Positions 5,703-14,216 of a DNA stretch of 64,000 nt are shown in pieces. The position numbers were made by a program, and so were the translations under genes. A model generated the notes under the pieces. That model was not told the DNA's origin and made no database searches. It saw only the letters and a program-made list of their open reading frames with translations. The DNA is taken from NCBI GenBank assembly GCA_042584005.1, contig JBHOTF010000003.1, forward strand, positions 10,652 through 74,651, written 5' to 3'. The DNA is from Bacteroidota bacterium (lineage in GTDB: Bacteria > Bacteroidota > Bacteroidia > Bacteroidales > JBHOTF01). Position 1 is the stretch's first letter, and every line of letters starts with the position of its first letter.

Positions 5703-5769
5703 AATTTGGATGAACAAAAATGATGGGTGCTAAATGCCCCCCCCCTACATACCCTAAAAACAATTACAA

Positions 5770-6894
5770 TTATTTTCCGCTTATCTTATGGAAATACTGT
5801 AAAAATGCTTCAAACTGAACTTTTTTGTCGAATTTTTCTACCATCTGAAGTCGACCATTATCACCCATCTGTTTCATTTTTTCAACATCCGAACATAAAT
5901 TTAATATAGCTTTTGCAAGTTCATCTTTATTGCCAGGTTCGACCATAAAACCGGTTTCGCCGTTTTTAACTACCTCAGGAACACCGGCCATACGTGATGA
6001 GACAACCGGTGTATTCATCGACATTGCCTCAAGTAAAACATTTGGCAATCCTTCTTTATATAAACTTGATAAAACCAGAATATCAATTCGTTCATATATA
6101 TAAACCGGCTCGCGGGTAAATTCAAAAAAACTTACATTATCTGAAAGTCCCAATTCCTTAACTTTCTCTTTCAGCATTATTTCATCCGGGCCTTCACCAA
6201 CTAAAACCAAATGAGCATCTGGTAAATCTCCGTTTACAATAATTTTTAATGATTCCAATAAAACTGTTTGTCCTTTACGCTCTTCGTAGGTTCCAATACA
6301 ACCAATTACAGGAAAAGCATTTTCAGGTAAAATATAGCGCTTAAAAGCCTCTTTTTTTCTTTTGACATCTGAAGTAAACAATTCTACCTCTGTACCCTGA
6401 TATATCAATTCAGTGGTTTCAGCAGGTATCTTATATGTTTCGAGCATATAATTCCTGGTAAATTCTGTGATTGCGATTACTTTTAATGGTATGTTTTCAT
6501 AAGGCACATAATATTTCCTCAAATAGTTGGGAACAATAGTTCCTGATTTGGGTATTAAAATAGTTTCTAAACCAGCATCTTTAATACAGGTTCCTGCAAA
6601 TACAGAACAATGAAAACTTTGACGTGGTGGATGTACTGTGCAAACAGCGACATCGCATAAGCTAAGAGTTTCTGTCCATATTTTTTTATTTTCATCATCC
6701 TCACTTATAACTTTATCATAATCGTAAGTGTGGACCTCAGCTCCTGCCTCATTACAAATTTTTGCTGTCCAACTTCCTTCAGGAGCAAGAATAATTACAT
6801 TTTCTCCTTTATTTAAAAAAAATTGTGTTGCTTCGGTTACCCAAATCTGAGTCCCACCGCGTAGAGGTGTATCTTCAATAAATCCTATATTCAT
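5770..6894 (-). CDS. Glycosyltransferase family 4 (GT-B, group 1)
   Basis: C-terminal GT4 signature SSLYKEGLPNVLLEAMSMNTPVVSSRMAGVPEVVKNGETGFMVEP. Start lies 5 nt after the upstream gene stop. Confidence 0.88.
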   Translation of the reverse strand: MNIGFIEDTPLRGGTQIWVTEATQFFLNKGENVIILAPEGSWTAKICNEAGAEVHTYDYDKVISEDDENKKIWTETLSLCDVAVCTVHPPRQSFHCSVFAGTCIKDAGLETILIPKSGTIVPNYLRKYYVPYENIPLKVIAITEFTRNYMLETYKIPAETTELIYQGTEVELFTSDVKRKKEAFKRYILPENAFPVIGCIGTYEERKGQTVLLESLKIIVNGDLPDAHLVLVGEGPDEIMLKEKVKELGLSDNVSFFEFTREPVYIYERIDILVLSSLYKEGLPNVLLEAMSMNTPVVSSRMAGVPEVVKNGETGFMVEPGNKDELAKAILNLCSDVEKMKQMGDNGRLQMVEKFDKKVQFEAFLQYFHKISGK

Positions 6895-6899
6895 AATAT

Positions 6900-8666
6900 T
6901 TAAATTGTTTGCTTATCAAATTTAGTTAACAAATCCCTCAAATTAGCATCCATTACATCTTCACTATAACGTTGGTGTACAGCTTTACGATTTTGTTTAT
7001 TGACCTCAATATTTTTTTCAGGGAAAAGTAACAAATCAGAAACAATGTTTAGAAAATCAATTGAGAATTCATTCTCAGGAAATAATGTATATTTTATTTG
7101 TTGTTCTTCATTTAAAGTTTTACCAACAACACCATCGAAAACTTCGTTTGGGAAATACCGACTGCAAATAATTGGAATCCCACCAGCGCTCGATTCTACA
7201 ATTGGCAATCCTCTTCCTTCAGTTTCACTGGGAAAAACAATTGCCGTTGCGAGTTGATATATATCGTGAATATACAAACGGTTAAATCCTTTTTTAGCAA
7301 AAACACTATGTTCTTCTGTACCTACTGAAAAAGCTAAAAATAAACGATTGGAAACTGATTCCGGCAGCTTCCCGCACACATCAATAAATGTTTTTAGAAT
7401 AACTTCCAGATCATATTGATGTTCGATAGGTACAGGACCTGTGATATGCAAAATGATCTGTTTTTCCGGATTATTATCAAATTCTTTTCTGAAATACTGA
7501 TGTTGTAAAAGTGCTTCAATCAATTCAATATCCTTTTTTATTCTTTTCCGTCCTATTATTCGTGTAGGTTGTAACAGGTATATAGTATTATCATTTGTAG
7601 GATCAAGTATCAGGTTTTCAGAATAAGCACAGACTATAGGTTTTTGATTCGACATCCAATGTTCAAGATTTTCGAGATGCTTATTCACCGATTGTGGAAG
7701 AATCAACGAATGGCCATCAGATAATATATGTGCCATTCGAAAACGAATTGATTGTACATCTTCACTGGTATAATTAGTGAAAAAATCGTCACTAATAGAA
7801 GTAGCAAGCTCAAATACTTTTTCTGAATCGAAATTATATTTGTTTATTAATTTATCTGATTGAAGTTTATTGATATTTGTTTGAATCCATTTTTTACCAT
7901 TCCAGGGATATAACTTTTCGAAAAACATGAAAAAATCCTGATTATTGTAGTTTTTGAAAAAATGATCTCTTGGGCCGGGCCTTTCACCCGGTTTTTTCTC
8001 TAATGCTGGTTTTCCTCCCTCCCAGTAATAATCGTGATTGGAATTCAAAACATATAAATCCATTAGTTCAGTAACCAGAGGAATACATAAACCAAGTGCC
8101 AGATTTCCAGGGTTTGAGCATATATTTACCGGAATTAAAAGATGGATATTATTATCAGCCAAATATTTCCCCAGCCGCTTACTTAAGGAAACTGCTTGTT
8201 CCCAAATTTCTAAAGCCAGATTGTCTGATTCTTTGCTGTTTTGTGGCATATCTTCATTAAACAGGCGATTGTACCAAATTGCATTTTCCCATTTTCCCCA
8301 ACCGTTGGAGCCTGAAAGTTTAAACCGTTTCCATTCCGGTTTAATCACAGTATCCGCTTGTGAATAAAAGTCACCACCGATAAAATGTATTTTAGGCTCA
8401 GCATTTTTGAATACAAAATTTTGCAAACTCATGGCATATTTTGACATTTCAATTGAAACACCATCTATGCCATAGTCGTAAGTTATAAATGCAATTCCGT
8501 TTTTTATATCATTTATTGAAGAGTTTATTACCCCTGTATGAGGGCTTAGCGATTGATTTTTTATTAGCATTAATAAATCATCAATATCTTTCCAATTTTT
8601 AGGATAAAACTTTTCAAGTTTACTGATCATTTGATTATACAATACGCTTTTGTTGTTTGCTTGCAT
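6900..8666 (-). CDS. Atypical long glycosyltransferase-like protein (GT-B C-terminal half, uncharacterised N-terminal ~400 aa)
   Basis: 588 aa. C-terminal FPSETEGRGLPIVESSAGGIPIICSRYFPNEVFDGVVG resembles the GT4 E-x7-E region. I do not recognise the N-terminal part (ITYDYGIDGVSIEMSKYA...). Confidence 0.6.
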   Translation of the reverse strand: MQANNKSVLYNQMISKLEKFYPKNWKDIDDLLMLIKNQSLSPHTGVINSSINDIKNGIAFITYDYGIDGVSIEMSKYAMSLQNFVFKNAEPKIHFIGGDFYSQADTVIKPEWKRFKLSGSNGWGKWENAIWYNRLFNEDMPQNSKESDNLALEIWEQAVSLSKRLGKYLADNNIHLLIPVNICSNPGNLALGLCIPLVTELMDLYVLNSNHDYYWEGGKPALEKKPGERPGPRDHFFKNYNNQDFFMFFEKLYPWNGKKWIQTNINKLQSDKLINKYNFDSEKVFELATSISDDFFTNYTSEDVQSIRFRMAHILSDGHSLILPQSVNKHLENLEHWMSNQKPIVCAYSENLILDPTNDNTIYLLQPTRIIGRKRIKKDIELIEALLQHQYFRKEFDNNPEKQIILHITGPVPIEHQYDLEVILKTFIDVCGKLPESVSNRLFLAFSVGTEEHSVFAKKGFNRLYIHDIYQLATAIVFPSETEGRGLPIVESSAGGIPIICSRYFPNEVFDGVVGKTLNEEQQIKYTLFPENEFSIDFLNIVSDLLLFPEKNIEVNKQNRKAVHQRYSEDVMDANLRDLLTKFDKQTI

Positions 8667-8691
8667 ATATTAATTTTAAATAGCGATTTTA

Positions 8692-10227
8692 TTATGTTTT
8701 TCTATAAGGAATTTTTAATTTGTTCATCCTGTTTCTTAATGTGCTGGCATTAACTCCAAGTAATTTTGCTGCTCCTTTAGGTCCATGTACTCTCCCTTTT
8801 GTTTTTAAAAGAACATTCGTAATGTGTTTTTTTACAGCCTTATCAAGATTGTATGACTCTGATCCATTTTGTTCAGCAGATAATAAACTGTCGAAATTTA
8901 TAGGTCCTTCGGGATTCAGTATTAATGCTCGTTCTACAATATTTTGAAGCTCTCTGACATTTCCAGGCCAATTATATTTCATTAAGGTTTTGATTGCTCC
9001 TGAAGAAACTTCAGGAACCGAGGTTAATTTTAATTCCTTAACTTTCTGACTGATAAAATGCTGAAGCAATACCGGGATATCAGCTTTTCTATCCCGTAAG
9101 GACGGTATTCTGATAGATAAGGCATTCAGACGAAACCATAAATCTTCTCTGAATTTTTTATCCTTAACCATTTCTTCAAGATTCCTGTTTGTGCCAACTA
9201 TTATTTTTATATCCAGCTTTATTGATTTATTTCCACCTATTCTTTCAATTTTATTGTTTTGAAGAACTCGAAATAACTTTTCCTGAGTATATAAGGGTAA
9301 TCTGCCTATTTCATCGAGATAAATAGTTCCTTTATTTGCGCGCTCAAGCCTGCCTCTCTGACTGGATATAGCACCAGGGAAAGCTCCTTTTTCATATCCG
9401 AAAAGTTCACCATCGATATGATGATCAGGTATATCACTACAGTTAAGGGATACAAATGGCCCTTTGTTTTTTGAAGAATAATAATGAATAGCATTAGCAA
9501 TAATATCTTTGCCAACTCCAATTTCTCCTACCAGCAAAACCGGACTGATAACTGAGGAAACTTGCCTGACCATTTCCATAACATTTCTTAAGCCGAAGTT
9601 AGCCCCAATTATTTCATCGCCCGATTTCCTTCTAAGCTGAGTATGAAGATATTGGTTGTCATCAATCAATAAGTTATATCGTTTAATAAGTTTCCTGTGC
9701 TCCAAAGTATTTGATAATGCCAGAACAAATGTTTCCTTTAATAAGGAAATTAGTTTTGCATGATTTTCATGATATTTTTGCCTGCCATCAGCAATTAATA
9801 CAAAGCTGCCAAGCAATTTATATTCCGTTCTTAGGAGCATTATCAACATTGCATTGGCTTTAACTTTATAAGAATCTAAAATCTCCCGGCCAATAATCCC
9901 CTTTTCAAGACCGTTATAAAAAACAACATCAGCAATCTTGCTTTTTTCTATTTTTTTTAGATCTGATTTTGCTTCACCGGATAAACGGATCAATAAATCT
10001 GATTTTTTTGATTTTGTATATGTTGCCTCGGCAATAGCTCTCATTGAGTTCCCCCCAGCATCATATTTTAATAGAAATATGCGGTCAGCAGGAATACTTT
10101 GTTTAATATACCTGATAAATGTTAATAAGGCCTTCTCAATTTCTAATTGTCCGCAAATATGAAGAGTAGCTTTTTGGAAAAATTCGTTTTTATTGATATG
10201 GTCCATGACAGAATATTTTTTTGTCAA
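8692..10227 (-). CDS. Sigma-54-type enhancer-binding protein (GAF sensor + AAA+ + Fis-type HTH) with a non-canonical GAFPGA loop
   Basis: AAA+ core VLLVGEIGVGKDIIANAIH..ELFGYEKGAFPGA..GTIYLDEIGRLPLYTQEKLFRVLQ..RLNALSIRIPSLRDRKADI. C-terminal HTH AAKLLGVNASTLRNRMNKL. The ORF opens with TTG 10227; ATG 10206 (MDHINKNEFF) is the more likely start. Confidence 0.88.
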   Translation of the reverse strand: MTKKYSVMDHINKNEFFQKATLHICGQLEIEKALLTFIRYIKQSIPADRIFLLKYDAGGNSMRAIAEATYTKSKKSDLLIRLSGEAKSDLKKIEKSKIADVVFYNGLEKGIIGREILDSYKVKANAMLIMLLRTEYKLLGSFVLIADGRQKYHENHAKLISLLKETFVLALSNTLEHRKLIKRYNLLIDDNQYLHTQLRRKSGDEIIGANFGLRNVMEMVRQVSSVISPVLLVGEIGVGKDIIANAIHYYSSKNKGPFVSLNCSDIPDHHIDGELFGYEKGAFPGAISSQRGRLERANKGTIYLDEIGRLPLYTQEKLFRVLQNNKIERIGGNKSIKLDIKIIVGTNRNLEEMVKDKKFREDLWFRLNALSIRIPSLRDRKADIPVLLQHFISQKVKELKLTSVPEVSSGAIKTLMKYNWPGNVRELQNIVERALILNPEGPINFDSLLSAEQNGSESYNLDKAVKKHITNVLLKTKGRVHGPKGAAKLLGVNASTLRNRMNKLKIPYRKT

Positions 10228-10370
10228 ATACGGCGAATGTAATGATAATTGCCATATATGACAAATATTTAGCTTGCAAAGTAAAGACCCGTGATCTGGC
10301 AGATGATTATTTGCTTTTTTAATTGATTCAAAATTATTAACTTCATTGGCTTGATTTAATATTAAGTTTA

Positions 10371-11882
10371 ATGAAGAAAAAGCGATTTTTTTTATTTTTT
10401 TTCCCCGGAATAATAATCGGAATATTTTTTATCTTTTTAGGAAATAAGGCTGTTAGCGTGACTTCCACTGATAAATATTGTGCCTCCTGCCATGTCCATC
10501 CACAGGCAGATCAATCATGGAAAAAATCAACTCATTATAATAATAAATCAGGAGTTCAGGTTCATTGTGTACAATGTCATTTGCCTCCTCATGGGGAAGG
10601 CTATTTGGGAGCTAAAATTAAAACAGGACTAAAAGACCTGTTTGCAACCTGGTTTAAAGATTCTGCTGATTATAACTGGGAAGAAAAATCGAGATTGGAA
10701 AATGCTGTACACTTCGTTCCTGAAGAATCGTGCATTGCTTGTCACCAGACAATATTTATGGTTTCATTATCAAAAGAAGGCGAAGAAGCACATTTATATT
10801 ATTCAGAAAAAATTAAAAAAGAGAATATTCATTGCATTAACTGCCATATCGGTGTTGGACATTATAACCCGGATTTAATTCATGCAAAAAATCTGGAATT
10901 TGGAAAAGGAAGCGAAGAGAATACAAAAGTGTATAAAAAACCTGCCTCAGTAAAAAAATTCGAAAATTATACAGAATATATCCCGGGCTCTACTATTTCC
11001 TTTAACATGAAAGCTATTCCCGGTGGAAAGTTCATTATGGGAAGCCCTGATGATGAACCTTATCGTGATAATGATGAAGGGCCACTAAAAGAAATTGCTG
11101 TTAAGGCATTTTTTATGGCCGAGATTGAAGTTAGCTGGGATGAGTTCCTGGTATTTTATTCACAAACATCAGGCGAAGGGAGAAGCTCAGATAGCGAAGC
11201 AAGTAAAAAACAAATTGATGTTGATGCCATTGCTGGGGCCACACCTCCATACGGGCAACCAGATCAGAACTGGGGACTGGGAAAAAGACCCGCAATTACT
11301 ATGACATGGCATGCCGCAGAAACATATTGTAAATGGTTATCGAAAGTAACAGGAAAAAATTACAGGTTACCTACTGAAGCCGAATGGGAATATGCCTGTC
11401 GTGCCGGAACAACTACACCGTATTTTTTCGAGGGGAGTCCAAAGAAATTTCACAAAACAGGATTCTTTAGCAAGTTTTCATCAAATGACACCACTATAAT
11501 TAATTCATTTGTAATATATTCTGAGAACAGCAAATCAAAAACCCAGCCTCCGGAATCTGTTTTGCCCAATAAATTCGGTTTAAGGAATATGTTGGGTAAT
11601 GTCGCTGAGTTTTGCAGTGATTGGTATTCTGAGAATACATATTCAGATGGTTCGGCAGATAATCCTGCGGGGCCTGAATCGGGAACTGAACATGTTGTAC
11701 GCGGAGGCTCCTATAAGGATAATGCAGGTAATTTAAGAGCTGCAAACAGAGACTTTACAAAAAAGAAAAGCTGGCTGAGAACCGATCCGCAAATACCTAA
11801 AAGTATTTGGTGGTATTCCGACTGTTCCTGGGTAGGAATAAGAGTGGTTTGCGATTATGATGAAAATACAGCTAATAAATAA
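10371..11882 (+). CDS. Fusion protein: N-terminal TM helix + NapC/NirT-type tetrahaem cytochrome c + C-terminal FGE-sulfatase (SUMF1-like) fold domain
   Basis: TM helix FFLFFFPGIIIGIFFIFLG. Four CxxCH motifs (CASCH, CVQCH, CIACH, CINCH) lie in the first ~170 aa. FGE-fold motifs follow: PGGKFIMGSPDDEPYRDNDEGP, YRLPTEAEWEYACRAG, GNVAEFCSDWY, VVRGGSY. Confidence 0.85.
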   Translation: MKKKRFFLFFFPGIIIGIFFIFLGNKAVSVTSTDKYCASCHVHPQADQSWKKSTHYNNKSGVQVHCVQCHLPPHGEGYLGAKIKTGLKDLFATWFKDSADYNWEEKSRLENAVHFVPEESCIACHQTIFMVSLSKEGEEAHLYYSEKIKKENIHCINCHIGVGHYNPDLIHAKNLEFGKGSEENTKVYKKPASVKKFENYTEYIPGSTISFNMKAIPGGKFIMGSPDDEPYRDNDEGPLKEIAVKAFFMAEIEVSWDEFLVFYSQTSGEGRSSDSEASKKQIDVDAIAGATPPYGQPDQNWGLGKRPAITMTWHAAETYCKWLSKVTGKNYRLPTEAEWEYACRAGTTTPYFFEGSPKKFHKTGFFSKFSSNDTTIINSFVIYSENSKSKTQPPESVLPNKFGLRNMLGNVAEFCSDWYSENTYSDGSADNPAGPESGTEHVVRGGSYKDNAGNLRAANRDFTKKKSWLRTDPQIPKSIWWYSDCSWVGIRVVCDYDENTANK

Positions 11883-11911
11883 GAAAAATTAAAACCTAAA
11901 ACTATAATATT

Positions 11912-13264
11912 ATGAAAGAAAAAGATCAGATTTCCAGAAGAAATTTTATTAGCAAAGCAGCAGCTGTAGGTGCTGTGGGCGCTGTGGGTATTCCTGTATT
12001 GATGAATGCCTGTAAAACGGGAACTGTTCCGCAAGATCTGGTTCTCCCTCCCTTACTTGATATTGCACCTGATGGTCCTGAATTAAAAGCCGGATTGATT
12101 GGATGTGGAGGTCGTGGTACAGGAGCAGCAATGAATTTTCTCAGTGCAGGCCCAAATCTTAAAATAACCGCTCTCGGTGATGTATTACAGGATAGGTTAG
12201 ATGATTGTTTTAAGCAACTAATTGAGAAAAAACAAAATGAAGTGGCAAAAGAAAACTGCTTTGTTGGTTTTGATGCGTTTGAAAAAGTTATTAGCTCAGG
12301 AGTTGATATAATAATACTTGCAACTCCACCATTTTTCCGCCCTGAACATTTTGCTGCTGCTGTACAGGCCGGTAAACATGTATTTATGGAAAAACCTGTT
12401 TGCGTTGACCCTGTAGGTGCACGATCAATAATGGCAACCGCAAAAAAAGCTGAAACTCTTGGACTATCTGTTGTAACAGGTACCCAGAGAAGACATCAGA
12501 GAGATTATATAGGCATTTACAAACGAGTTATGGCAGGTGATATGGGTGAAATTGTAGCTGCAAATGCATACTGGAATGGAGGCAAATTATGGCATAAAGA
12601 TCCCAGACCTGATTGGACGGAGATGGAATATATGATAAGAGACTGGGTTAACTGGTGCTGGCTGTCAGGTGACCATATTGTTGAACAGCATGTGCATAAC
12701 CTTGATGTAATAAACTGGTTTACAGGCTCACATCCTGTTAAAGCCGTTGGATTCGGGTCACGTTTAAGAAGAGTAACAGGCGATCAGTTCGACAATTTCA
12801 GTATTGATTATATATATGAAAACGATATGCATCTGCATAGTATGTGCCGTCAGATAAATGGTTGTGTTAATAATGTTTCTGAATTTATTATGGGAACAAA
12901 AGGGCATACCGATTGTCATAAATTTATTTATAATCCTGATGGGACTGTAAAATTCGAATACCCATATCCATTAAACGAAGATGGTGAATCAACAGGTAGA
13001 GTTAAAGTTGGCCCTTATGTTCAGGAGCACATTGATCTGGTAACTGGAATTCGCCGTAATGAGCCTTACAATGAAGCAGAAAATACCGCAATTTCAACTC
13101 TCACAGCTATTATGGGAAGAATATCTGCTTATACCGGTAAAGAAACCACCTGGGACGAAATGATGAATTCAGACCTTAAATTAGGGCCGAAAGTATTTGT
13201 TATGGGTCCGGTCGATATTAATAAAGAAGTACCAATTGCGGGGGAAGCTTATGTCGGGAAATAA
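11912..13264 (+). CDS. Gfo/Idh/MocA-family oxidoreductase with a twin-arginine (Tat) signal
   Basis: Tat motif ISRRNFISKAAAVGAVGAVG. Rossmann KAGLIGCGGRGTGAA. Conserved EKPV and the C-terminal alpha/beta domain are present. Confidence 0.88.
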   Translation: MKEKDQISRRNFISKAAAVGAVGAVGIPVLMNACKTGTVPQDLVLPPLLDIAPDGPELKAGLIGCGGRGTGAAMNFLSAGPNLKITALGDVLQDRLDDCFKQLIEKKQNEVAKENCFVGFDAFEKVISSGVDIIILATPPFFRPEHFAAAVQAGKHVFMEKPVCVDPVGARSIMATAKKAETLGLSVVTGTQRRHQRDYIGIYKRVMAGDMGEIVAANAYWNGGKLWHKDPRPDWTEMEYMIRDWVNWCWLSGDHIVEQHVHNLDVINWFTGSHPVKAVGFGSRLRRVTGDQFDNFSIDYIYENDMHLHSMCRQINGCVNNVSEFIMGTKGHTDCHKFIYNPDGTVKFEYPYPLNEDGESTGRVKVGPYVQEHIDLVTGIRRNEPYNEAENTAISTLTAIMGRISAYTGKETTWDEMMNSDLKLGPKVFVMGPVDINKEVPIAGEAYVGK

Positions 13265-14216
13265 TAACTCACGAAGGTCTTTTATTAAAAAGGCCGCTGG
13301 TTCAGCTGCTGTAATTATGGCAGCACCAGCTTTTGCAAGTGCTGCAACAGACGATAAAAAAAAGAAAAAAAAGAAGAATCTGCCTCCTGCTCCTTTTAAT
13401 CTGAAATATGCCCCTTCTTTTGGGATGTTCAGAGAAAGTGCCGGGAATGATCTTATTGATCAAATAAAATTTTGTCATGATCAGGGATTTCGTGCAATAT
13501 TTGATAACGGGCTGATGGGACGGGAAAAATCTATGCAGGAAAAAATTGCATATGAGCTCGACAGGCTTGGAATGGATCTTGGACCTTTTGTTTTGTATGC
13601 TGATTTTTCGGTTACTTCCTTTGTTACAAACGATGGAGAGAAAAGGAAAATGCTGATAAACAGGATGAAAGAAGGGGCTGAAACCGCAAGAATTACCGGT
13701 GTCAAATGGGCGCTGGTGGTTCCTGGTAGGTACGATGAAAGACTTCATTGGGATTATCAAACAAATAATGTTATTGATAATCTGAAATTTTGTATGGAAA
13801 TTCTGGAACCTGCAGGATTAACAATGGTTCTCGAGCCTTTGAATACTTTGCGCGATCATCCGGGATTATTCTTAACTGAAATGCCCCAGACTTATATGAT
13901 AGCAAAAGCTGTAAATAATCCATACTGTAAGATTGTTGACGATATATATCATCAGCAAATAACAGAAGGGAATATTATACCTAATATTGAATATTGCTAT
14001 GAAGAAATCGCTGCTTTCCATCTTGGTGATAATCCCGGAAGAAAAGAACCTACCTCAGGTGAAATAAACTATAAGAATATTTTCAAATATCTTTATAATA
14101 AAGAATTTGATGGAGTGTTATGTATGGAGCATGGAAAATCCTTAAAAGGCATTGAAGGTGAAAAGGCTGTGATTCAGGCATATAGGGAATGTGATGCATT
14201 TTTAGAAAAAGACTGA
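13251..14216 (+). CDS. Xylose-isomerase-like TIM-barrel protein (sugar phosphate isomerase/epimerase or hydroxypyruvate-isomerase-like) with a Tat signal
   Basis: Start chosen at ATG 13251 (MSGNNNSRRSFIKKAAGSAAVIMAAPAFASA, a Tat signal), which overlaps the upstream stop by 14 nt. The track start 13197 would bury the signal. TIM-barrel motifs VLEPLN and MEHG are present. Confidence 0.82.
   Translation: MSGNNNSRRSFIKKAAGSAAVIMAAPAFASAATDDKKKKKKKNLPPAPFNLKYAPSFGMFRESAGNDLIDQIKFCHDQGFRAIFDNGLMGREKSMQEKIAYELDRLGMDLGPFVLYADFSVTSFVTNDGEKRKMLINRMKEGAETARITGVKWALVVPGRYDERLHWDYQTNNVIDNLKFCMEILEPAGLTMVLEPLNTLRDHPGLFLTEMPQTYMIAKAVNNPYCKIVDDIYHQQITEGNIIPNIEYCYEEIAAFHLGDNPGRKEPTSGEINYKNIFKYLYNKEFDGVLCMEHGKSLKGIEGEKAVIQAYRECDAFLEKD

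Follow-up and report, generated by a model that had tools for sequence, protein, structure and literature searches.

GT588 and GT374, a recurrent pair of GT4-type glycosyltransferases that may build a small soluble glycoside

The GT588-GT374 pair and its described relatives

The described enzyme closest to the glycosyltransferase pair reported here is MggS of Petrotoga mobilis and Thermotoga maritima, which forms mannosylglucosylglycerate from GDP-mannose and glucosylglycerate. As a soluble enzyme of the Leloir type, MggS adds a sugar to a small glycoside that is already present, which yields a compatible solute (PMC3736172). The pair consists of an atypical 588-residue glycosyltransferase (GT588) and a 374-residue member of glycosyltransferase family 4 (GT4), GT374, encoded by neighbouring genes in a 64,000-nucleotide stretch of a Bacteroidota assembly (GCA_042584005.1, contig JBHOTF010000003.1, positions 10,652 to 74,651), which we refer to as the window. 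The two genes, here called the cassette, lie directly downstream of a gene for a regulator of the enhancer-binding type (REG). By analogy with characterised GT4 enzymes, GT588 and GT374 may act as sequential, soluble, retaining glycosyltransferases that make a small cytoplasmic glycoside, a reading for which we judge the case evenly balanced.

MggS is the only named family that shares with GT588 more than the generic GT4 nucleotide-binding stretch, and MggS-like genes adjoin the cassette in Chloroflexota. The MggS-like relatives themselves score 197-380 bits against the MggS cut-off of 640. GT588 differs from MggS in being about 155 residues longer, with a 55-residue N-terminal extension and several inserts, and in its consistent pairing with a second GT4; neither GpgS, GgS nor a phosphatase accompanies it in this window. 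BshA and MshA are soluble retaining GT4s that act on small-molecule acceptors, glycosylating L-malate or inositol phosphate in thiol cofactor synthesis. They are neighbours of GT588 in structure and of GT374 in sequence, but the cassette has no bshB/bshC or mshB-D genes nearby. Sucrose-phosphate synthase (SPS) and mannosylfructose-phosphate synthase are GT4 enzymes like GT588, which matches SPS-like proteins at E 0.016 by profile and E 1e-11 by fold, and a fusion of a GT588 module with a DUF89-type phosphatase-like region, described below, echoes the synthase-phosphatase logic of these systems. SPS-type systems have a dedicated phosphatase, whereas the cassette has two tandem transferases and no phosphatase in the 83 loci compared below. 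Two sequential GT4s working without export machinery are also known from glycolipid synthesis, where alMGS/alDGS of Acholeplasma and the paired GT4s Spr0982/CpoA of Streptococcus pneumoniae act without a flippase or polymerase. The cassette departs from these in its negligible scores against the corresponding models, its acidic proteins and its soluble-sugar-enzyme neighbours. By analogy, it would work most like a non-phosphorylating MggS-type route to glycoside solutes. Judged by curated models, it is outside all the characterised equivalog families compared (MggS, BshA, MshA, MGlcDAG synthase and PEP-CTERM glycosyltransferases), and the last four were rejected as identities for the cassette proteins because scores fell below the curated cut-offs.

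The AlphaFold2 model of GT588 (pLDDT 89.2, pTM 0.84) has a complete GT-B fold with two Rossmann-like domains. Foldseek places MshA first (3c4q, E 2e-13), followed by GlgM, SPS-like, BshA, WaaG and TreT structures. For MshA, GlgM, BshA, WaaG and TreT the probability is 1.00, with template-modelling scores of 0.66-0.73 on the targets (0.70 for MshA). Sequence identity is 10-13%, and about 200 GT588 residues are without counterpart in the structural neighbours. Pfam recognises only residues 460-505, as Glycos_transf_1, at a marginal 27.3 bits against a gathering threshold of 26.4, and gives no match in the first ~400 residues. Searches of GT588 against Protein Data Bank (PDB) chains returned only spurious matches to glycoside hydrolase family 3 (GH3; E >0.06), and its family profile found only the generic GT4 stretch, with SPS-like structures among the best matches (E 0.016); by these comparisons, GT588 is without a solved close relative. 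The original prediction for this DNA, made from its letters alone, had seen a GT-B nucleotide-sugar-binding half at the C terminus and had not recognised the first ~400 residues. Both observations hold: the C-terminal half contains PSETEGRGLPIVESSAGGIPIICS at residues 479-502, the Pfam result is blank where the prediction was, and the structural model extends the half to a full GT-B enzyme.

The residues expected of a GT4 active site are retained in GT588. Arg and Lys residues placed where the C-terminal domain begins are the usual diphosphate-binding pair of GT4 enzymes, and the stretch around R369 and K374 aligns with FLQPTRxxxRKxIE of MggS-like proteins. Since this pair and the EX7E motif are both invariant, GT588 is predicted to be catalytically active. 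An alignment of 38 family members has a mean column identity of 65% and about 100 invariant columns distributed along the entire length. Homologues of ~585 residues form more than 727 clusters in a set of 5.8 billion proteins, are 50-57% identical across phyla and occur in at least 463 GTDB species. A search of the literature on MggS, glucosylglycerate synthase and GT4, compatible solutes in Lentisphaerae and Kiritimatiellaeota, and strain zth2 turned up no account of the GT588 family.

The relationship to MggS emerges through intermediates. The best NCBIfam match of GT588 itself is MggS (NF041101), at 36.5 bits against a cut-off of 640, which fails membership. A profile search of 1.84 billion representative sequences reached, beyond the family itself, one group of proteins of 1380-1460 residues and another of 430-445 residues, and the full length of the latter aligns with the MggS model, with scores of 197-209 bits. 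An hhalign comparison of the GT588 family with these MggS-like proteins gave a probability of 100% and E 5e-41 over 407 columns, spanning both domains (GT588 residues 63-584 and MggS-like residues 19-429). The motifs DGVSxE, NPxN, HHDFYWE, QPTRxxxRKxIE, ITGP and FPSxxEGxGxPxxE are common to both, and GT588 has inserts at about residues 100-140, 222-237 and 305-355. On these alignments, GT588 is a distinct, uncharacterised clade within the MggS-like branch of GT4. A conserved amphipathic helix rich in Trp and Lys lies at residues 123-136. Neither GT588 nor GT374 of the window has a transmembrane segment, and both families are acidic, with median isoelectric points of 5.8 and 5.3, respectively.

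GT374 is the standard GT4 that had been predicted, matching Glycos_transf_1 at E 2.7e-39 and Glyco_trans_1_4 at E 3.3e-36 and carrying the EX7E motif EGLPNVLLE. Its best NCBIfam match is a glycosyltransferase associated with PEP-CTERM/XrtA (stp2), at 113 bits against a cut-off of 409; it also falls short of the cut-offs for BshA (TIGR03999; 101.1 against 273.7 bits) and MshA (60 against 462.5 bits). The best PDB matches are 7mi0 and BaBshA, the latter at E 1.4e-18. The GT374 family has a fixed length of 373-375 residues and at least 60% identity across phyla, and is found on the same contigs as the GT588 family.

Distribution and gene context of the pair

Our comparison covered 83 loci, of which 80 belong to GTDB species representatives and three to metagenome contigs. 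A GT374 orthologue (52-88% identical) lies directly downstream of GT588 in 76 of them, and three of the seven loci without one are cut by contig ends. The loci span more than 12 phyla, which include Bacteroidota, Chlorobiota, Marinimicrobia, Lentisphaerota, Kiritimatiellota, Verrucomicrobiota, Chloroflexota, Actinomycetota, Nitrospirota, Myxococcota, Acidobacteriota and Planctomycetota. Cultured carriers number at least one, Lentisphaerota strain zth2, whose pair occupies 8001-10875 of locus L077, taken from CP071032.1 within 2,348,155-2,365,843. The two proteins are co-inherited: over 64 loci, the identity of one to its window counterpart tracks that of the other (r = 0.93). The spacer between the genes has a median of ~40 nucleotides in 64 related loci, compared with 5 in the window.

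No other gene is broadly shared. All-against-all clustering of the open reading frames (ORFs) of the loci yielded no further common family, and the apparent ones were antisense ORFs inside the pair. Across the 83 loci there are no conserved export, polymerase or lipid-carrier genes beside the pair, no recurring phosphatase next to it, and no relative of REG (tblastn, E 1e-5). Even in close relatives the surroundings differ. In relatives at 82% identity the pair lies downstream of Suf genes and small unknown ORFs, and in one at 80% identity it lies between two GAPDH genes and bipA, in both cases without REG. Recurrent pairing, the lack of any other shared neighbour and the differing surroundings indicate a cassette that is mobile and self-sufficient. 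What is conserved is the pair of transferases and not a trio with REG, which is a neighbour of the cassette only in this species-level lineage. The original prediction had treated the regulator and both transferases as one regulated unit. Of that unit only the transferase pair is syntenic elsewhere; REG is absent from all 83 loci, the relatives at 80-82% identity included, and the trio does not stand.

Some lineages add genes to the cassette. In 19 loci, mostly of Chloroflexota, a third co-directional gene follows GT374 and makes a three-transferase operon. Its ~426-residue MggS-like product scores 233 bits over its full length against NF041101, and these proteins are 68-84% identical to the copy in locus L080 that served as the query. 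The loci include L013, L020, L024, L029, L038, L041, L044, L047, L050, L053, L054, L057, L058, L063, L076, L079, L080 and L083, and one belongs to a metagenome-assembled genome (MAG) labelled Pseudomonadota. In two Anaerolineales loci, L080 (51-7603) and L072 (135-7450), the cassette closes a larger co-directional cluster. Upstream of it are genes for a GH38 alpha-mannosidase, a 2H-phosphodiesterase-like protein, a GT2-like protein, a 457-residue MggS-like protein (380 bits), a GH130 enzyme that passes the beta-1,2-mannobiose phosphorylase equivalog (500 bits against a cut-off of 450) and a sucrose-phosphorylase-like GH13 protein (198-212 bits against 334). This cluster may represent an intracellular mannoside or heteroside cycle. 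It resembles the mggS-mggB-sucrose phosphorylase cluster of Rhodopirellula baltica, in which mggB encodes a phosphatase and the MggS homologue was inactive in vitro (PMC3736172).

Fusion proteins and a hydrolase offer further context. About 35 bacterial paralogues of 1380-1460 residues (within P0126-P0170, for example P0129 and P0141), from Myxococcota and Verrucomicrobiales, combine a GT588-like N-terminal module with a C-terminal NAGPA phosphodiester glycosidase domain, an architecture that appears to be undescribed. Three full-length fusions were scanned, and in one of them (P0141) an ARMT1/DUF89 phosphatase-like region is present as well. In locus L086 the fusion gene (8001-12224) is preceded by genes for a 428-residue MggS-like glycosyltransferase and a cupin of the mannose-6-phosphate-isomerase type. 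As far as domain content can tell, these fusion partners point to soluble sugar or sugar-phosphate chemistry. An SGNH/GDSL hydrolase gene lies just downstream of GT374 in seven Victivallaceae loci (L046, L055, L062, L065, L066, L067 and L070), and another is divergent from the cassette in an Actinomycetota MAG (L003, 7014-7835). Such a hydrolase could acylate or de-acylate the product.

The neighbouring regulator and the locus in the window

The features of the locus are collected in Table 1. The ORF coordinates agree with the three minus-strand genes and short gaps originally predicted, and sibling MAG assemblies with consecutive NCBI accessions repeat the gene order, so the three-gene arrangement is not an assembly artefact.

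Table 1. Coordinates of the cassette, the regulator and neighbouring features in the window
Feature	Position	Strand	Remarks
GT374, GT4 glycosyltransferase, 374 aa	5770-6894	minus
GT588/GT374 spacer	6895-6899	minus	5 nt
GT588, atypical GT-B (GT4-type) glycosyltransferase, 588 aa	6900-8666	minus
GT588 EX7E motif, E483-GRGLPIV-E491	7194-7220	minus	E483 and E491 invariant
GT588 R369...K374 (QPTRiigRKRI), start of C-terminal Rossmann domain	7545-7562	minus	Invariant in 38 sequences
GT588 family-specific N-terminal extension, aa 1-55	8502-8666	minus	Two helices; absent from MggS-like relatives
REG/GT588 spacer	8667-8691	minus	25 nt
REG, GAF-AAA+-HTH (helix-turn-helix) regulator ORF	8692-10227	minus	511 aa from TTG at 10227
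REG likely start, ATG	10206	minus	504 aa; exact 504-aa form in NCBI MFC2120120.1
REG Fis-type HTH_8 domain	8716-8832	minus	PF02954, aa 466-504, 22.3 bits against cut-off 22
REG AAA+ sigma-54 interaction domain	9112-9612	minus	PF00158, aa 206-372, 202 bits
REG L1 loop motif GAFPGA	9370-9387	minus	Pro codon CCT; family norm GAFTGA
REG divergent GAF sensor domain and long linker helix after it	9628-10206	minus	From homologues and AlphaFold2/Foldseek
Candidate -24/-12 site GGGTCTTTACTTTGCA	10275-10290	minus	Weak; 48 nt before REG TTG, 69 nt before ATG
Extracytoplasmic function (ECF) sigma and FecR-type anti-sigma pair	813-2212	minus
NmrA-type short-chain dehydrogenase/reductase (SDR) domain fused to DUF2867, 496 aa	4212-5702	plus	Convergent with cassette
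Divergent operon adjoining REG	10371-14216	plus	Three genes

REG has the GAF-AAA+-HTH architecture originally assigned to it. Pfam finds Sigma54_activat (E 5e-60), AAA_lid_14 and HTH_8, and the HTH region is conserved in the homologue alignment. Pfam gives no GAF match in the N-terminal 208 residues. Nine of 16 full-length homologues (55-58% identical) do match GAF or GAF_2, and residues 8-200, modelled with AlphaFold from 25 sequences (pLDDT 88.1), have only GAF domains as their top PDB matches in Foldseek (best E 8e-8), among them that of the Chlorobium sigma-54 regulator 3k2n; on these two results the GAF call is correct. A phmmer search of PDB sequences recovers FlrA, NtrC, NifA and FleQ at E 1e-70. 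REG shares its architecture with NorR, FhlA and NifA, with NCBIfam alignments of 274-304 bits, but it is below every equivalog cut-off and has GAFPGA in place of GAFTGA. The AAA+ motifs GEIGVGKD, LDEIG and FREDLWFRLN, which cover Walker A, Walker B and the Arg fingers, are present. G(A/S)FTGA is found in 117 of the 120 closest homologues, and a fragment from an independent assembly (P0513) likewise ends in GAFPGA. In PspF, the Phe and Thr of GAFTGA contact sigma-54 region I (PMC3467059). REG also departs from positions that are invariant in its subfamily, for example with GEIGVGKD for GETGVGKD and NCSDIP for NCGAIP; such divergence suggests relaxed or shifted constraint. Homologues at 56-57% identity adjoin genes for ApbA and NmrA-type SDR proteins and not glycosyltransferases. 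A scenario in which the cassette came to separate REG from an SDR gene that had been its ancestral partner is unsupported, the SDR/DUF2867 protein of the window being only 26-27% identical to those SDRs.

In this genome the cassette has come to lie directly downstream of this GAF-sensor regulator. Read-through is likely because the 25-nucleotide spacer between REG and GT588 holds no terminator, and the cassette is here probably transcribed from the REG promoter. A further proposal is that the GAF domain of REG detects a signal and that REG then switches on a sigma-54 promoter upstream of its own gene, so that REG, GT588 and GT374 form an autoregulated, stress-responsive operon; we consider this rather improbable. 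The co-directional genes, their small gaps without a terminator and the stable arrangement among sibling assemblies fit it. The original prediction had suggested looking for a sigma-54 promoter upstream of REG, and a site of the right spacing is there: GGGTCTTTACTTTGCA combines GG-N10-GC with TTGCA, a type expected by chance ~0.03 times on that strand of the 143-nucleotide spacer and matched 25 times in 128 kb (both strands). The site is weak, with 7 of 12 consensus positions and a poor -24 element (GGGTCT against TGGCAC), and a consensus scan at 9 or more of 12 did not report it. Scanning with up to three mismatches was uninformative (235 matches against 215 expected). There is no -24/-12 site directly before GT588 in the window, and upstream of REG the only inverted repeats are short AT-rich palindromes overlapping or downstream of the candidate promoter, none of them enhancer-like. 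A plus-strand TGGCAG...TTTGC in the spacer between REG and the divergent NapC gene was rejected as a promoter of the divergent operon for its GG-N13-GC spacing. No rpoN gene or RpoN-box peptide is encoded within the 64-kb window. The altered contact loop, in which the sigma-54-contacting Thr kept by nearly all homologues is replaced, the lack of linkage between REG and the cassette in every other lineage, and the ApbA/SDR neighbours of REG homologues all speak against the operon, as does the absence of general -24/-12 enrichment (six sites against 5.9 expected) in 80 upstream regions of the cassette. From what the sequence offers, sigma-54 control of the window operon is doubtful. Elsewhere it does seem to occur, because TGGCAAATTTATTGCA, an identical near-consensus sigma-54 promoter, is conserved 52-128 nucleotides upstream of the GT588 orthologue in L014 (about 7873-7888), L018 (about 618-633) and L019 (about 486-501). 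These are MAGs of one other lineage whose GT588 genes are 86-88% identical in DNA, and the promoter lies within a block of 63-114 nucleotides that is the sole alignable part of their upstream regions.

The wider neighbourhood (813-20900) agrees with the original observation that export and polymerisation genes are not nearby. A Pfam scan and inspection of the neighbours found no flippase, polymerase, ABC exporter or initiating phosphoglycosyl transferase; none lies within ~10 kb of the trio. The divergent operon next to REG encodes a 503-residue NapC/NirT tetrahaem cytochrome fused to an FGE-sulfatase/SUMF1 domain, a GFO/IDH/MocA oxidoreductase with a twin-arginine translocation signal and a TIM-barrel protein that resembles xylose isomerase. 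To go by domain content, this operon looks like a module for sugar oxidation in the periplasm, connected to the quinone pool, and could equally be the target of REG. ECF sigma/FecR pairs such as that at the edge of this region are typical of TonB-dependent uptake loci of Bacteroidota. The remaining neighbours include lipoprotein-like unknowns, an FAD reductase and an enolase-superfamily protein, and the unannotated ones have at most one hydrophobic segment, at the N terminus. A run of nine G residues lies at about 5742-5750, inside the 67-nucleotide convergent spacer between GT374 and the SDR-DUF2867 gene.

Candidate products and their significance

In the route that we propose, GT374 would use a nucleotide sugar to glycosylate a small metabolite, as BshA and MshA do, and GT588 would add a second sugar to the resulting glycoside, as MggS does. 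Where the MggS-like gene is present, a third sugar would be added to give a tri-glycoside. The product would be a small soluble di-glycoside that builds up and serves either as a compatible solute or as a small store of carbon. Which of the two enzymes acts first, which donors and acceptors they use, what they make and what role it has are all inferred from these analogies. A soluble di- or oligo-glycoside is favoured because of the affinity to MggS, the context of mannoside and sucrose-phosphorylase genes, and the acidic proteins without membrane segments. The original prediction had preferred a cytoplasmic product such as a glycoside-type solute. It gains from the export-free pair in 83 loci, the acidic character and lack of transmembrane segments, the MggS-like tie and the sugar genes of Chloroflexota, while product and role stay conditional.

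Several observations count against this soluble-glycoside reading. Functional transfer depends on remote homology (36.5 bits against the equivalog cut-off of 640), and the MggS-like proteins that bridge the gap are uncharacterised too. In R. baltica, the homologue of MggS was inactive in vitro (PMC3736172). A phosphatase does not accompany the cassette in the 83 loci, unlike most compatible-solute pathways, and the sugar-metabolism context comes from two related Anaerolineales loci only. The top structural neighbours include lipid- and lipopolysaccharide (LPS)-directed GT4 enzymes, PimB' and WaaG, and the Trp/Lys-rich helix of GT588 could serve as a membrane-interface element. The marine and saline habitat bias is read from isolate names only.

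The main rival reading draws on several of the same observations. GT588 and GT374 could be peripheral membrane GT4s that make mono- and then di-glycosyl diacylglycerol (DAG), or another glycosylated lipid, which would explain the missing export genes equally well; we regard this as unlikely. A two-gene cassette without export genes fits it, as do the PimB' and WaaG neighbours and the amphipathic helix. GT588 gives a weak 21.5-bit match to alpha-monoglucosyl-DAG synthase, and its MggS-like relatives match the processive DAG glucosyltransferase and the IagA/BgsA family at 23-25 bits. Universal substrates, DAG and UDP-sugars, would also account for easy horizontal spread. All lipid glycosyltransferase models (NF049988, NF049987), however, score far under their cut-offs of 400-500, and the nearest sequence family is MggS-like and not a lipid glycosyltransferase. 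Interfacial GT4 lipid synthases are typically basic, whereas both families here are acidic. The associated genes are soluble sugar phosphorylases and hydrolases, and the fused partners are a phosphatase-like region and a phosphodiester glycosidase. Less probable still is a role in the envelope, in which the pair would decorate the LPS core, capsule or exopolysaccharide, wall polymers or protein, with the initiating, export and polymerising genes elsewhere. The automatic JGI annotation as a glycosyltransferase involved in cell wall biosynthesis, the WaaG neighbour and the best NCBIfam match of GT374 lean that way, yet that PEP-CTERM/XrtA match reaches about a quarter of its cut-off (113 against 409 bits). 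A conserved envelope-biosynthesis neighbour is found in none of the 83 loci, and close relatives carry the cassette amid housekeeping genes (GAPDH/BipA or Suf). A pair that is 50-60% identical across monoderm and diderm phyla is also hard to square with a lineage-specific surface structure. The reading of the locus as a surface-polysaccharide locus was rejected for its lack of conserved partner genes.

Returning to the soluble glycoside, a wider and more tentative proposal can be framed. GT588 and GT374, with the MggS-like enzyme of Chloroflexota, may form a pathway for a soluble di- or tri-glycoside not described so far, which would be an osmolyte or a small reserve. Horizontal transfer would have brought this pathway to several hundred species in more than 12 phyla, largely uncultured anaerobes that come mostly from seeps, the water column and marine sediment. 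In that case GT588 would be a new glycosyltransferase subfamily whose extra 150-200 residues form an acceptor site or a partner interface. We hold this possible, at clearly lower confidence than the simpler reading of two sequential soluble transferases.

The cassette contradicts nothing in current understanding. GT4 Leloir transferases of the MggS-like branch are known; the changed architecture and the obligate partner are new, and they do not amount to a new type of system. The regulatory side matters less: REG adjoins the cassette in this lineage only, and its loop for sigma-54 contact is altered. Because the cassette is compact, self-contained and present in the cultured Lentisphaerota strain zth2, its function is directly testable. 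If the soluble-glycoside reading is true, it would give a function to a family of ~585-residue proteins that at least 463 species encode, that now has no annotation beyond glycosyltransferase or hypothetical, and of which Pfam sees ~45 residues. It would also provide a new compatible solute or reserve, and the genes for it, in lineages with almost nothing known on osmoadaptation: Anaerolineae, Victivallales, Kiritimatiellia, Marinimicrobia, Aegiribacteria and sediment Bacteroidales.

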